Source of the DNA: an uncultured Gammaproteobacteria bacterium
Lineage (GTDB): Bacteria > Patescibacteriota > Microgenomatia > CAZXEC01
NCBI GenBank assembly: GCA_964639595.1
Contig: CAZXEC010000001.1
Location: 390,903 to 454,902 of the forward strand
Length of the DNA stretch: 64,000 nucleotides
Reading direction: 5' to 3'
Shown: piece after piece, positions 49,228 through 54,409 of the stretch
Layout: every line of letters begins with the position of its first letter
Position numbering within the stretch: the first letter of the stretch is position 1
Made by a program: the position numbers and the translations under genes
The notes under the pieces: generated by a model
The model's input: the letters and a program-made list of their open reading frames with translations, nothing else
Databases searched by the model: none
Told to the model about the DNA's origin: nothing

Positions 49228-50367
49228 ATGTTGATTAAGCCGGAAGTGAGACCTTTTGCCAAGATTAAAGTCATTGGACTGGGAGGTGCTGGTTGTAATG
49301 CCTTAAACTCCATGATTTCACTATCACAAATCCAGGGAGTAGAATTTATTGCCGTCAATACTGATGCTCAAGCACTCTTAACCTGTCAAGCTCCCACTAA
49401 AGTTCAAATCGGAGAAAATTTAACCAAAGGTTTAGGCAGTGGGGCTGATCCGGAAATAGGCCAAAAAGCGGCAGAGGAATCGACTGAAAAACTCCATGAC
49501 ATTTTATCCGACGCTGACATGGTGTTTGTCACCGCCGGCATGGGAGGAGGCACTGGGACTGGTTCTGCTCCGATAGTGGCCTCAATTGCCCGGTCACAAA
49601 AAGCCTTGACAGTGGCAGTGACTACTAAGCCATTTGCTTTTGAAGGAACTCGAAGAATGATGATAGCAGAACAGGGCATATCAACACTCAAAGATAAGGT
49701 TGATGCCTTAATTGTTATTCCCAACCAGCGGATTCTGGACGTAGTTGATGCGAAGATGTCCATTATTGAGGCTTTTAAGGTGGCTGATTCAGTGCTATCC
49801 CAGGGTGTGCAGGGCATTGCTGATTTGATTACCATGCCGGGACTGATTAATGTGGACTTTGCCGATGTCAGGACTATTATGACCGGTGCTGGTTCTGCTT
49901 TGATGGGTATTGGTGTTGGGCAAGGAGAAAATAGAGCAGTGACTGCTGCTAGGATGGCGATTGCCTCGCCCTTATTGGAGGTATCCATTGATGGCGCCAG
50001 AGGGGTATTGTTTAATATTATCGGCGGGCCGGACTTGGCCATGTCAGAAGTTGATGAGGCTGCTAAAATTATTGCCGGCGCAGCTGATGCTGATGCTAAT
50101 ATTATCTTTGGGGCCACCATTGATGAGAAAATGGTAGACCAGATCAAAATTACTGTTATTGCCACTGGTTTTGATGCCACCAGAAGGCGGTTGAGGGAGC
50201 TAACCAGAAGAGACACCAGTCAGATTCAAAACCAGATGGGCGACCCATGGCTAAATTCTTCAACAGGCGATATACCGCTTACTCCAGCATCGACAGTTCC
50301 AATTATTGATGAAAATATATTTACCGATGATGATTTCGACACTCCGGCCTTTTTGAAAAAACACTAG
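49228..50367 (+). CDS. ftsZ: Cell division GTPase FtsZ
   Basis: IKVIGLGGAGCNA and the GGGTGTG (T7-loop region). The internal ATG was chosen over the ORF-track start at 49183 because it fits the promoter. Confidence 0.9.
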   Translation: MLIKPEVRPFAKIKVIGLGGAGCNALNSMISLSQIQGVEFIAVNTDAQALLTCQAPTKVQIGENLTKGLGSGADPEIGQKAAEESTEKLHDILSDADMVFVTAGMGGGTGTGSAPIVASIARSQKALTVAVTTKPFAFEGTRRMMIAEQGISTLKDKVDALIVIPNQRILDVVDAKMSIIEAFKVADSVLSQGVQGIADLITMPGLINVDFADVRTIMTGAGSALMGIGVGQGENRAVTAARMAIASPLLEVSIDGARGVLFNIIGGPDLAMSEVDEAAKIIAGAADADANIIFGATIDEKMVDQIKITVIATGFDATRRRLRELTRRDTSQIQNQMGDPWLNSSTGDIPLTPASTVPIIDENIFTDDDFDTPAFLKKH

Positions 50368-50666
50368 TTTGCCACTTCCATGACAGAGGTTGTTGAACAA
50401 ACACCGCCAAATCATGCAAAGTGGCCTGAAAAATTAAAGGTCAGTTATCGCTACTCCGGCTTTTCTAAGAAATAGCAGGTAACATCCAGAGCCTAAGATT
50501 TGATTATCAACTGCATGAGTAGTTTAATATAAAAGATGGACACAGTGGACACAGAAAAAACACCCTCCCTCCCCCGCCTTTCACAAAAAAGAAAGGCCGG
50601 GTTCTTTCCCGAACATCTTCTGCCATTTGTTCCCTGGCGTGGTGAAGTAGAAGACGAGAAGTGTAC

Positions 50667-51447
50667 ACATCACACCCTTAGGGTGTGATGTATTTGATGG
50701 TCTAGTGATCCTCATTCTATTAGAAGGTGTTTTAGTTGATCTAATTGTCTTTGGTAGCCGATTTGGTCTTCTGTGAATTTGATAAATTCTTGGGTAGAAG
50801 TAAAATATTTTAAAACAAGATCTTTATTGATGATATCTAAATTATGCTTACCAATGTAGGTAGGAAAAGATGACCATGGATAGTTTTCTAATTGTTTGAT
50901 ATCACTTAAAATAAAAGCAGTAGTAGGGTTTAAATGTATATATCTTACAACATGAATCAATTGGTCACCGCTTTTAATTAATTTTGCCTTGAACATAGTT
51001 TTGAATAAACTTCCGTCACGAGCCGTCCTAACATTAAAATATTTAGCATAGCTGTTCTGAAAGTTACTCATAAAAGTTGATATTCCCCTTGCTCTTACCT
51101 CTTTGATTAGGAAATGGATATGATTTGGCATAAGACAGAAAGCAAGTAACTCTATTTGTTTTTGGCCATTTTTTCTTAAGTTATCCATAAAATCATTTTT
51201 TTGCAAATCAGATAAACGTTTAAAGTAGGAGAACCGTATCTTTACACCTACATAGCTGTAGAATACTAAGACTTGTAAAGCTCTTTGATAGTCCTGCTTA
51301 GTTAAGAATATAGACTGTTGAGCAATACCTCTATTAAATACATGATATATTTGGTCAATCACTAAAGGGGGATTCCTGTATGTCATGATTTAATACTATC
51401 ACACCCTTAGGGTGTGATAGGGGTGTATAGGGTGTGATAGTATTGTC
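50667..51447 (-). mobile_element. Y1-HUH (IS200/RAYT-type) transposase gene bracketed by identical palindromes (REPtron-like unit)
   Basis: Palindrome ACATCACACCC-TTA-GGGTGTGATGT at 50667-50691. Palindrome TATCACACCC-TTA-GGGTGTGATA at 51397-51419, with a partial third copy at 51421-51440. They flank a 224-aa ORF. Confidence 0.55.
50712..51386 (-). CDS. REP-associated tyrosine transposase (RAYT)/IS200-family Y1 HUH transposase
   Basis: N-terminal YHVFNRG (RAYT-type YHV..RGN), the HUH motif LMPNHIHFLI, and the Tyr motif VRYIHLNP. Confidence 0.6.
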   Translation of the reverse strand: MTYRNPPLVIDQIYHVFNRGIAQQSIFLTKQDYQRALQVLVFYSYVGVKIRFSYFKRLSDLQKNDFMDNLRKNGQKQIELLAFCLMPNHIHFLIKEVRARGISTFMSNFQNSYAKYFNVRTARDGSLFKTMFKAKLIKSGDQLIHVVRYIHLNPTTAFILSDIKQLENYPWSSFPTYIGKHNLDIINKDLVLKYFTSTQEFIKFTEDQIGYQRQLDQLKHLLIE

Positions 51448-51487
51448 AACTTGTCCCCAAGCTGGATTTTTAGGTACAATATCATTG

Positions 51488-54409
51488 ATGTTTAAACCAG
51501 TTTCTACCAAGATGGATTTTATTGACATGGAGCATAAGCTCCTGGATTTTTGGTATTCCCAGGGGATTATTAAGAAATATTTGGCCAAAAATAACCAGTC
51601 ACAGTCCAAATTCTCCTTTTTAGACGGCCCGATTACTGCCAATAATCCCATGGGAGTGCACCATGCCTGGGGCAGAACTTATAAAGACCTCTGGCAACGC
51701 TTTTTTACTATGCTAGGTAAAAAACAACGTTATCAAAACGGTTTTGATGAACAAGGGCTTTGGGTAGAGGTAGAAGTTGAGAAAGAGCTGGGCTTAAAAA
51801 GTAAAAAAGATATTGAGAATTTGGTTCCCGGTGATAAATTCAAAAGTCTGGAAAAATTTATCAACCTGTGCCAGGATCGAGTCAAAAAATTTTCCGCCAT
51901 CCAAACGGAACAATCCCAGAGACTGGGCTACTTCATGGATTGGGATAATTCTTATCACACTTCCTCGGAAGAGAATAACTACACGATTTGGCGTTATTTG
52001 GCAACTGTTCATAAAAAGGGTTGGTTGTATAAAGGCAGGGATTCTGTGCCATGGTGTCCCAGATGCGGAACAGCCATTTCTCAACATGAGATTTTAACTG
52101 AAGAATATCAAGAACTTACCCATAAAACAGTCGTATTTAAGCTTCCTCTAAAAGGGAAAAAGAATGAATACCTTTTAGCTTGGACGACAACTCCGTGGAC
52201 GATACCAGGAAATGTAGCTCTAGCCGTAGACCCAGATCGTTCATATTGGAAGATGACTAATAATAAAGGAGAAAAAATAATACTTATCAATCCTACAGCA
52301 AGTGGAAATGTTGAGAAGGAGGCAATGCTTGTTGAAAGATTGGATTTGACTAAAGGTTGGGTGAAGCATCAGGGAGGAGAAATAAAAGGTAAAGATTTAA
52401 TTGGGCTAGAATATGAGGCGCCATATAATCATCTACCAGCTGTTAAAAAAACTTTAGGGAAATACCAGCATCAGGTAGTTTCAGCAGACCCAAAGATATT
52501 GGCAATTAATCCAGCTGAAGGTACAGGAATTGTTCATATAGCACCTGGTGCTGGAGCCGAAGATTTTAGGCTAGGTATTAAAGAAAAAATACCCTCAATT
52601 GAAGAAATTGATGAGACGGGAATATTTCTAGAAGGATTTGAATTTTTAAGTAGTCTTGATGTCAACGAAGCCTCAAAGAAAATACTGGAAGATCTCAAGA
52701 ATCGTAATTTAGCTTTTAAGATCGCTGATTATACTCATCGATACCCCACATGCTGGCGATGTAAAACAGAACTGGTCTGGCGGGTAGTAGATGAGTGGTA
52801 TATAGCGATGGACCATCCTTCGCGCAAGGCTTCGGATGGCAAGCAAACCTATCGACAAATGATGATGGAAGTGGCAAAAAAGATTGACTGGATTCCAGAG
52901 TGGGGATTGGATCGGGAACTGGATTGGCTCAAAAATATGCACGATTGGTTAATCTCCAAGAAAAGATACTGGGGTTTGGCCCTGCCTGTTTGGGAATGTC
53001 ACAAATGCGGAAATTTTGAAGTTATTGACAGCAGGGATGAATTACAAAAAAAAGCTGTAGCGGGCTGGGATCAATTTACTGGACATTCGCCTCATCGGCC
53101 TTGGATAGATCAAATAAAAATCAAATGCTCAAAATGTAATGAAAGTATCTTAAGAATTCCGGATGTGGGCAACCCTTGGCTTGATGCCGGGATAGTGCCT
53201 TTTTCGACCATGCCAGAAGATTGGTTTCCGGCAGATTTTATTACGGAATCTTTTCCTGGTCAATTTAAAAACTGGTTCTATTCGTTAATTGCCATGAGCA
53301 CTGTCTTAAAAAACACTAATCCATTCCAGGCGGTGTTAGGCTTTGCGTCGGTCAGGGATGACAGGGGAGAGGAAATGCACAAGTCCAAAGGCAATGCTAT
53401 TGAGTTTGGCGAGGCGGCAGACAAGATTGGCGTGGATGTGATGCGGTGGATTTATAGTATTCAAAATCCGGAACAAAATCTTAATTTTGGCTATCATACG
53501 GCAGACGAAACCAGGCGGAGATTTTATTTAATTCTGTGGAATGTTTACAGTTTCTTTGTAACATATGCCAACCTTGATAAATGGACTCCACCGGCAAAAT
53601 TTTCCCAACACTCTCAATCTGCTAATATACTTGACCGTTGGGTACTTACTAAATTATATCGATTGGTTGAGCTGGTAACTAGTTCACTGGCAAGCTATGA
53701 TGCTATGACTGCCTCTCGGGCAATTGAAGAGTTTGTTGTTGATGATCTTTCCGGATGGTATATCAGACGCAGCCGTGATCGGGTGGGGCCCACTGTTGAT
53801 GATAGTCAAGACAAAGATGCCTTTTATCAGACATGCCATGAAGTTTTGGTGAAGTTATCAAAAACTCTGGCCCCTTTTATACCATTTATTGCTGAAGAGA
53901 TTTACCAGAATCTGACTGGCGAGGAATCAGTCCATTTGTCTGATTGGCCAAAACCAGATAGCAAACAGACTATTGGGGGTATTGATCTAAACATGTCTGA
54001 TGCCATTAAACTTGCTTCTGTTGTCCATGCTTTTCGCAAGACTGCTGGCGTGAAAGTGAGAATTCCATTCAAAAAACTGCATTATTCAGGTTCAAAAATA
54101 CCAGATGAGATACTTAAAATAGTTGAGGATGAAGTTAATGTTTACCATTTAGAGTATAGAGGCAGGAATGAAGATTTTCAGGTGGATGGTGACATATCGG
54201 TTGCCAACCAAGATTTGCAAGCAGGACAGGCCAGGGAACTAATAAGAACAATTCAGGAAAAGAGAAAAGAAGCAGGCTGCGCTTTAGACGAGTTGATTGA
54301 AATAGTTGTTCCAAATTGGCCTGCTAGCTTCGAAAAAGACATTCTCAAGCAGACACTAGCCAAAAGCATAACCTCTGGACCAGAGTTGTCCGTGGTGAGA
54401 ATTTCATAA
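51488..54409 (+). CDS. ileS: Isoleucyl-tRNA synthetase (archaeal/eukaryote-like type)
   Basis: Class I HIGH-variant (PMGVHHAWG), KMSKS-variant (HKSKGN), and the zinc/editing region VPWCPRCGTAIS. Start 51488 was chosen because TACAAT (51475-80) lies 7 nt upstream; 51512 is possible. Confidence 0.7.
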   Translation: MFKPVSTKMDFIDMEHKLLDFWYSQGIIKKYLAKNNQSQSKFSFLDGPITANNPMGVHHAWGRTYKDLWQRFFTMLGKKQRYQNGFDEQGLWVEVEVEKELGLKSKKDIENLVPGDKFKSLEKFINLCQDRVKKFSAIQTEQSQRLGYFMDWDNSYHTSSEENNYTIWRYLATVHKKGWLYKGRDSVPWCPRCGTAISQHEILTEEYQELTHKTVVFKLPLKGKKNEYLLAWTTTPWTIPGNVALAVDPDRSYWKMTNNKGEKIILINPTASGNVEKEAMLVERLDLTKGWVKHQGGEIKGKDLIGLEYEAPYNHLPAVKKTLGKYQHQVVSADPKILAINPAEGTGIVHIAPGAGAEDFRLGIKEKIPSIEEIDETGIFLEGFEFLSSLDVNEASKKILEDLKNRNLAFKIADYTHRYPTCWRCKTELVWRVVDEWYIAMDHPSRKASDGKQTYRQMMMEVAKKIDWIPEWGLDRELDWLKNMHDWLISKKRYWGLALPVWECHKCGNFEVIDSRDELQKKAVAGWDQFTGHSPHRPWIDQIKIKCSKCNESILRIPDVGNPWLDAGIVPFSTMPEDWFPADFITESFPGQFKNWFYSLIAMSTVLKNTNPFQAVLGFASVRDDRGEEMHKSKGNAIEFGEAADKIGVDVMRWIYSIQNPEQNLNFGYHTADETRRRFYLILWNVYSFFVTYANLDKWTPPAKFSQHSQSANILDRWVLTKLYRLVELVTSSLASYDAMTASRAIEEFVVDDLSGWYIRRSRDRVGPTVDDSQDKDAFYQTCHEVLVKLSKTLAPFIPFIAEEIYQNLTGEESVHLSDWPKPDSKQTIGGIDLNMSDAIKLASVVHAFRKTAGVKVRIPFKKLHYSGSKIPDEILKIVEDEVNVYHLEYRGRNEDFQVDGDISVANQDLQAGQARELIRTIQEKRKEAGCALDELIEIVVPNWPASFEKDILKQTLAKSITSGPELSVVRIS

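Follow-up and report, generated by a model that had tools for sequence, protein, structure and literature searches.

What is a transposase-like gene, bracketed by two copies of one palindrome, doing between ftsZ and ileS, and is it a recent arrival or a long-standing resident? The gene, referred to here as the Y1 gene, lies in a stretch of 64,000 nucleotides (nt) of contig CAZXEC010000001.1 from an uncultured bacterium; this whole stretch was analysed and is called the window below. A preliminary description had read the locus as a rare mobile element, an IS200-like or REP-associated tyrosine transposase (RAYT; REP, repetitive extragenic palindrome), inserted in a streamlined genome. The analysis shifts this reading towards a long-resident, domesticated Y1 nuclease with private hairpins. 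The gene probably encodes a vertically inherited HUH nuclease for single-stranded DNA (ssDNA) of the RAYT/TIRYT type (class 2 TnpA-Y1), kept together with two cognate hairpins. This interpretation draws on the intact catalytic site and fold of the protein, the long residence of its gene beside ileS, and the recurrence of hairpin-gene-hairpin units throughout its family, in each of which the hairpin is specific to the locus.

A Y1 protein between two matching palindromes

The three hallmarks that had been noticed in a minus-strand open reading frame (ORF) of 224 amino acids (aa), YHVFNRG, NHIHF and RYIHLNP, were all located. The N-terminal motif IYHVFNRG occupies aa 13-20, the HUH motif lies in PNHIHF (H89-I-H91), and Y149 within RYIHLNP is the catalytic tyrosine; the tail has PWSS. 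Across 35 relatives (52-77% identity), and across 20 sequences reaching down to 36%, no change was seen at H89, H91, Y149, N153 or P154. Assignment to the Y1 HUH proteins is borne out by the Pfam domain Y1_Tnp (PF01797), which is matched at 37.7 bits against a gathering cut-off of 23 (E 2.6e-9) over aa 74-151 only, and by a Foldseek comparison with the PDB, in which ranks 1-30 are all Y1 transposases. The best TM-score (TMq 0.47), the lowest root-mean-square deviation (4.4 A) and the longest alignment (171 columns) belong to TnpA-REP of E. coli (4ER8). The AlphaFold (AF2) model of the protein has a predicted local distance difference test score of 80 and a predicted TM-score of 0.79. A PDB sequence search with the single protein gave nothing significant. 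The protein is a member of the HUH Y1 superfamily, with a Y1 fold and intact catalytic residues.

Both the Pfam and the NCBIfam hidden Markov models align only from residue 74, because the family carries a specific insert of ~27 aa at about aa 42-68. This insert is evident in the alignment with a homologue from a Pseudomonas plasmid, and the AF2 model shows it as two extra helices. The alignment of the NCBIfam model REP_Tyr_transpos leaves out the N-terminal YHVFNRG. A Pfam scan of the protein for a C-terminal helix-turn-helix (HTH) domain found none, and the model ends in one long helix (198-223).

The gene, the palindromes and the two conserved neighbours are arranged as follows (positions in the window):

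49228-50367, plus strand: ftsZ, conserved neighbour, convergent with the Y1 gene
50667-50691, no strand assigned: downstream palindrome ACATCACACCCTTAGGGTGTGATGT, 25 nt with a 12-bp stem, 20 nt past the Y1 stop codon
50712-51386, minus strand: Y1 gene, predicted IS200-like/RAYT-like ssDNA nuclease, 224 aa, ATG start
51396-51420, no strand assigned: upstream palindrome CTATCACACCCTTAGGGTGTGATAG, 25 nt with a 12-bp stem, separated from the Y1 ATG by 9 nt
51488-54409, plus strand: ileS, conserved neighbour, divergent from the Y1 gene, start MFKPV according to the source record

The same palindrome stands on both sides of the gene, as had been described, with an identical core of 21 nt; the distances of 21 and 11 nt given earlier are those of the cores, and those of the 25-nt palindromes are 20 and 9 nt. 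The copies differ in their two outermost stem pairs, but by compensatory changes that leave both fully paired. Both are the longest perfect hairpins of the 64 kb, the next-longest stem having 10 bp, and each folds as ssDNA at about -11.5 kcal/mol (z about -5.3). The hairpin can be written as ssDNA, ATCACACCCTWAGGGTGTGAT, or as the pattern [AT]TCACACCC-N3-GGGTGTGA[AT]. Dinucleotide-preserving shuffles of the window yielded zero palindrome matches at up to 3 mismatches.

Beside the upstream palindrome lies a further feature:

51421-51444, no strand assigned: extra right-arm repeats, reading on the plus strand from 51409 AGGGTGTGAT / AGGGGTGTAT / AGGGTGTGAT / AG

The preliminary description had mentioned a third, degenerate copy at this place. 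An extra copy does exist, but it reproduces the right arm exactly (TAGGGTGTGATAG, 51428-51440). This arm occurs three times with a period of 10 (51409-51444), and its outer copy (51429-51444) can pair with 51392-51407 to form an alternative stem of 16 bp. Arm-only tandem repeats beside hairpins are likewise seen at L014, L019, L031, L048 and L050, and the dispersed hairpin copies of Daviesbacteria E14, treated below, have arm plus flank duplicated with a period of 20-24. Slippage could be the source of such repeats, or they could be the footprint of a nuclease.

Residence beside ileS and hairpins across the family

A word-indexed search returned 489 family matches, almost all of about 224 aa, and the members that carry a source name are listed as 'transposase' of Daviesbacteria or Gottesmanbacteria. 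An exhaustive profile search gave 1,005 clusters (50% identity) at E <= 1e-30. The earlier remark that such elements are rare in bacteria of the candidate phyla radiation (CPR) does not stand, given about 1,000 clusters and named close relatives that are CPR bacteria; such Y1 genes are common in this group. A literature search combining RAYT or REPIN with Patescibacteria or CPR found no paper on the Y1 family of the window. The family is large and apparently undescribed, and might merit subclass status.

In seven independent relatives, with Y1 identities of 52-77%, the Y1 gene adjoins ileS in divergent orientation, and six of them have ftsZ on the other side:

L143: Y1 77% identical to that of the window; ileS-adjacent, other genes in place of ftsZ on the other side
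L144: Y1 71% identical; ileS-adjacent, ftsZ on the other side
L137: Y1 66% identical; ileS-adjacent, ftsZ on the other side
L139: Y1 66% identical; ileS-adjacent, ftsZ on the other side
L052: Y1 61% identical; ileS-adjacent, ftsZ on the other side
L054: Y1 58% identical; ileS-adjacent, ftsZ on the other side
L142: Y1 52% identical; ileS-adjacent, ftsZ on the other side

For the five loci L052, L054, L137, L139 and L142, identity to the window is 52-66% in Y1, 53-60% in IleS (32% in L137), 67-76% in FtsZ and about 56% in FtsA. Since its divergence is about equal to that of IleS, FtsZ and FtsA, Y1 evolves like a resident gene, and the view that it was recently inserted here as a mobile element is contradicted by the synteny. 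The preliminary description had itself named, as an outcome that would speak against a REP-type unit, an ORF conserved in synteny together with palindromes absent elsewhere. This outcome is half reached. Conserved synteny is, however, the published behaviour of RAYT genes, which are single-copy and vertically inherited (PMC5581495) and are flanked by cognate repeats (PMC5581495, PMC6006769).

One of the seven loci deviates in its neighbour. The IleS of L137 (L137:1335-4199) is only 32% identical to that of the window, compared with 53-60% in other relatives, which suggests replacement by a different IleS type; an extra ORF of 215 aa lies there between ileS and the Y1 gene. More distant homologues are found elsewhere. 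L057 lacks the ftsZ/ileS context, and in L140 (3806-6199), from another lineage, a 56%-identical Y1 gene with its hairpins is flanked by recA and recX, all three genes pointing the same way. A tblastn search against plasmids gave distant matches only, annotated 'transposase' and 23-34% identical. A homologue on a Collinsella plasmid (L146:583-1395) has 270 aa with weak HTH matches in its tail; it has lost the second histidine of the HUH motif (NHVR) and the catalytic tyrosine (RSVHADP), and looks like an inactivated DNA-binding derivative.

The hairpins of the family were surveyed in 80 further metagenome loci and several genome loci. Most loci have the same perfect hairpin on both sides of the gene, and this hairpin differs from locus to locus, as in CACACCTCCAAGGTGTG, TTCCACCTCTAAGGTGGAA, TTCAACACCGGGTGTTGAA, CTGCTACCCTCAGGGTAGCAG and TCAAAGCTAAGCTTTGA. 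The stems include CACACC, TTCCACC, TCAAAGC, CTGCTACCC and others, and direct and inverted loop orientations both occur. In 60 of 79 loci, a word of 12 nt or more is common to the upstream and downstream flanks of the gene (median 17 nt); when flanks of different loci are paired, such a word is found in 1.7% (median 8 nt). As each gene is bracketed by a hairpin of its own locus, protein and hairpin change together. The REPtron-like layout proposed for the window is therefore a trait of the whole family (60/79 loci), and it is TIRtron-like as well.

The dispersal of the window's own palindrome was followed in species-representative genomes with the pattern ATCACACCC-N3-GGGTGTGAT, which found 50 stretches, concentrated in few genomes. 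Of the 12 sites in Daviesbacteria E14 (JAUSHL01), nine fall outside every ORF of 100 aa or more and only one adjoins a Y1 gene; several sites each are also present in Woesebacteria, Saccharibacteria, Omnitrophota and other bins. In four such genomes the same stem flanks a Y1 homologue 36-40% identical to that of the window (L012, L019, L030 and L049). With mostly gene-less dispersed sites, the palindrome behaves like a modest REP family in those genomes. In passing, the palindrome flanks of L017, from a metagenome-assembled genome labelled 'uncultured Gammaproteobacteria' (CAZSXP01), are near-identical to those of L026 from a Woesebacteria metagenome-assembled genome (JAUYMM01), which suggests a mislabelled or chimeric CPR bin.

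Signals around the hairpins and the competing explanations

The flanks of the gene hold further conserved elements. In 27 loci an exact TTGACA follows the upstream hairpin at a distance of 5-7 nt, and in most relatives the box reads TTGACAC(C). A -10-like hexamer lies 17-18 nt after TTGACA; the distance from its end to the ATG is most often 6-7 nt, pointing to a leaderless Y1 mRNA. In the downstream flank of relatives a mirrored GTGTC box precedes the hairpin. The ends of the unit therefore form inverted repeats, imperfect and about 35 nt long, and the GACAC box, with its mirror image behind the gene, is not just part of a promoter. Some 30 nt, the TTGACAC box among them, have been lost from the window and from L143, its closest relative, and both have longer stems; L012, L019 and L049 show this short layout too. 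The signals proposed for the window are:

51393-51401, minus strand: inferred extended -10 TGaTAGTAT, partly formed by the right arm of the hairpin, ending 6 nt before the ATG
50564-50612, no strand assigned: hairpin between ftsZ and the Y1 gene that resembles an intrinsic terminator in both directions, GCCTTTC...GAAAGGC, each strand having T-runs

By the geometry conserved in its homologues, the Y1 gene of the window would likewise have a promoter at this place and a leaderless mRNA. As for transcript ends, the idea that the palindrome serves as an intrinsic terminator, in particular of ftsZ, was rejected: the palindrome has no T-tract and is not among the terminator-like sites found. A site of that kind lies about 70 nt beyond the downstream palindrome, and this hairpin at 50564-50612 is the likelier terminator for both convergent genes, ftsZ and Y1.

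On this basis a mechanism can be proposed for the domesticated nuclease. The enzyme would bind the hairpin when the DNA is single-stranded, e.g., on the lagging-strand template, and would cut and rejoin the strand next to it. Such events may occasionally seed or remove hairpin copies, while the Y1 gene itself would stay put. This action on the hairpins is suggested by analogy with E. coli TnpA-REP and IS608 TnpA and by the covariation of protein and hairpin. Because the upstream hairpin abuts the putative promoter of the leaderless Y1 transcript, its binding by the enzyme could also autoregulate the gene. The downstream hairpin would lie in the 3' untranslated region (3' UTR), ahead of the separate terminator.

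Several observations weigh against this interpretation, or against parts of it. Strict RAYT membership, as first proposed, is not upheld: REP_Tyr_transpos (NF047646), although the best NCBIfam model, reaches 46.6 bits against a cut-off of 80 and stays below threshold. Profile searches gave marginal matches only, to ISDra2 TnpA and to 4ER8 (E 0.003-0.07). Further copies of the palindrome or its arms in the 64-kb window, sought with 3 mismatches, by arm only, by CACCC..GGGTG cores and among all perfect hairpins, were none above chance, a result that is uninformative at the copy density of JAUSHL01, where zero extra copies in 63 kb would be unremarkable. Since no hairpin copy lies away from the gene there, activity on dispersed REPs is unsupported in the 64 kb of the window genome. 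The flanking copies are likewise the only ones within about 8 kb in 53 of 60 related loci. The loop orientation of both window flanks is direct; in many relatives it is inverted. The feet of the window palindromes are ACAT and CTAT, and the canonical 5' GT[AG]G foot is lacking; the dispersed copies of JAUSHL01 have A/T-rich feet, and the GTAGC found in relatives stands 3' of the hairpin on the gene strand, away from the canonical foot position. Finally, a consensus scan for a -35/-10 promoter on the Y1 strand of the window found none, and the promoter and autoregulation suggested above derive from consensus geometry.

The alternative that survives best takes the palindromes to be mainly cis-regulatory, one acting as operator for the divergent promoters of ileS and Y1, the other stabilising RNA or ending transcription behind Y1 and ftsZ; Y1 would then be a repressor that only binds the palindrome, or unrelated to it. 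The position of the upstream hairpin, 9 nt from the ATG and overlapping the inferred -10, fits this, as do the fixed spacing at which the hairpin abuts the conserved TTGACA in relatives, the prevalence of loci with two gene-flanking copies only, and the likely 3' UTR location of the downstream copy. We nevertheless consider it unlikely. A mere repressor would have no need of the invariant catalytic HUH and tyrosine residues, other genomes carry the same hairpin scattered over gene-less sites, the GACAC box has a mirror image on the downstream side of the gene, a position from which it cannot serve as the promoter, and terminator function is ascribed above to another site. Regulatory and nuclease-substrate roles of the hairpins are not mutually exclusive.

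The mobile-element reading of the preliminary description, in which an autonomous insertion sequence (IS) of the IS200/IS605 type recently entered the ftsZ-ileS interval and the hairpins are its left and right ends, appears highly improbable. In its favour stand the Y1_Tnp domain and fold, the hairpin-gene-hairpin unit, whose terminal inverted repeats in relatives are imperfect and about 35 nt long, the homologues in other contexts (between recA and recX in L140, away from ftsZ and ileS in L057) and the other genes that replace the ftsZ side in L143. It is largely refuted by the seven relatives in which the same slot is filled down to 52% identity, with a divergence like that of neighbouring housekeeping genes. 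Moreover, the Y1 gene is single-copy in the window and has no tnpB, its motif is the class-2 Y-x-x-x-N-P, the NCBIfam equivalog transpos_IS200 scores 12.9 bits against a cut-off of 55, and the ends are identical perfect palindromes in place of distinct left-end and right-end hairpins. The last alternative, functionless chance palindromes beside a decaying transposase remnant, has practically no probability and is refuted, its sole point being the absence of extra copies from the window, as shuffles of the window never matched, the ORF is unbroken and retains every catalytic residue, 60 of 79 related loci have hairpin flanks as well and the outer stem pairs are compensatory.

Returning to the domesticated nuclease with its cognate hairpins, a more specific version of that reading is possible, and we put it forward tentatively. 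The ~224-aa class-2 Y1 proteins may form a hitherto unclassified, CPR-centred subclass of about 1,000 clusters (50% identity) in which a perfect hairpin and the GACAC box co-evolve with the protein, the gene is fixed at a single chromosomal site over the long term, and the hairpins are mainly promoter-adjacent targets of the enzyme encoded between them and not a proliferating REP population. If this were true, it would represent a state of 'sedentary nuclease plus private hairpin' distinct from IS200 elements and from REP/REPIN systems. The dozens of natural protein-hairpin pairs are in any case a data set on how Y1 HUH enzymes read hairpin DNA, and are useful for choosing orthogonal pairs of HUH-tag and hairpin.

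The remaining features of the locus concern its neighbours. The divergent intergenic region between ileS and the Y1 gene has 101 nt. The ileS start MFKPV is kept in relatives, and ileS also looks leaderless, with a promoter-like TTGTCC-18-TACAAT ending 7 nt before the ATG at 51488 (region 51451-51490). In the gap of ~340 nt between ftsZ and the Y1 gene of the window, a conserved small ORF was looked for and none found; small ORFs of 36-181 aa between Y1 and ftsZ in relatives have no counterpart there. An Rfam scan of 50200-51600 returned sub-threshold noise only, on the palindrome itself, and thus no known RNA in the gap. The long ORFs of the window (1-64000) are almost all on the plus strand, the Y1 gene being among a handful of minus-strand genes. 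At the 3' end of ftsZ an orphan duplicate is present (region 50336-50481). The FtsZ of the window ends in ...FDTPAFLKKH* (encoded at 50336-50367), and a segment 112 nt downstream (50448-50472), 76% identical, follows a stop codon and, in another frame, reads ...VIATPAFLRNSR. As FtsZ ends in ...EIPAFLRSNR in all relatives, the ancestral C-terminal peptide seems to survive in the orphan, and the current end to have taken its place.

Comparison with known systems

Among the TnpA-Y1 proteins, Y-x-x-x-N-P marks class 2 (RAYT sensu lato) and Y-x-x-x-Q marks IS200 (PMC6006769). The invariant R-Y149-I-H-L-N153-P154 therefore places the window protein in class 2 and not with IS200, and the low copy number and vertical inheritance of that class are matched by one copy in 64 kb and by the seven ileS-adjacent relatives. 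The gene is flanked by cognate palindromes, the REPtron arrangement of RAYT sensu stricto.

The system shares with the TnpA of IS200/IS605 (IS608, ISDra2; subclass 1.1) the HUH/Y1 fold, hairpins at both ends and, presumably, the chemistry of tyrosine cleavage and ligation at ssDNA hairpins. It differs in having YIHLNP in place of Y-x-x-x-Q, in its length of 224 aa against about 150 aa, in being single-copy and syntenic where IS200/IS605 genes are multi-copy and patchy, in the lack of tnpB, and in its identical palindromes as opposed to distinct left and right ends.

E. coli TnpA-REP/RayT (YafM; Group 2, subclass 2.2) is the best structural match, has the class-2 Y-x-x-x-N-P, and is likewise single-copy, vertically inherited and bracketed by cognate hairpins (PMC6006769). 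The family of the window lacks, however, the 5' GT[AG]G foot, the bulged long REPs and the BIME/REPIN doublets of that system, and in place of hundreds of REP copies, the window has none away from the gene, and the related genome richest in them about 12.

By motif set, not phylogeny, the protein fits the low-copy branch described as Group 1, subclass 2.1 or TIRYT. Subclass 2.1 of Quentin et al. 2018 corresponds to Group 1 of Bertels et al. 2017 (PMC6006769, PMC5581495) and is largely equated by Quentin et al. with the TIRYT/'TIRtron' of Di Nocera et al. 2013 (PMC6006769). Its signature comprises NH[VYF]H, W[EQ] or FQ, YIELNP or Y[IV]HLNP, a tail with 'SS' and about 238 aa (PMC6006769, Table 1); the window protein has NHIH, YIHLNP, PWSS and 224 aa, with LFK where the family consensus is LFQ. 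The sole pairwise comparator was a P. aeruginosa plasmid protein (NHVH/LWE/YIELNP/PWSS), which is 27% identical to the window Y1 (tblastn E 9e-15). The terminal inverted repeats of TIRYT genes are low in copy number, in some cases self-complementary, and carry a G-rich GGGGWSAS motif (PMC3733652), and the copy number of the repeats flanking Group 1 genes is low to moderate (PMC5581495). The window Y1 is similarly flanked by low-copy, partly self-complementary, G-rich (GGGTG...) inverted repeats.

The family also differs from this branch. The ~27-aa insert of the window family is absent from the Pseudomonas and Collinsella proteins. The C-terminal HTH of subclass 2.1 (Bac_DnaA_C, HTH_23, HTH_28) is missing from the window Y1, which has a single long helix instead of an HTH/DnaA_C-like domain; the C-terminal tail is heterogeneous in subclass 2.1.2 (PMC6006769). 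The hosts belong to the CPR/Patescibacteria. Published surveys of complete genomes make no mention of this phylum-level group, to which systems of RAYT/TIRYT type are now extended. Quentin et al. report no REP-like hairpins beside the genes of subclass 2.1 (PMC6006769), whereas perfect hairpins with a GACAC box are usual in the family of the window, an indication that Group 1-like proteins, too, can have hairpins beside their genes.

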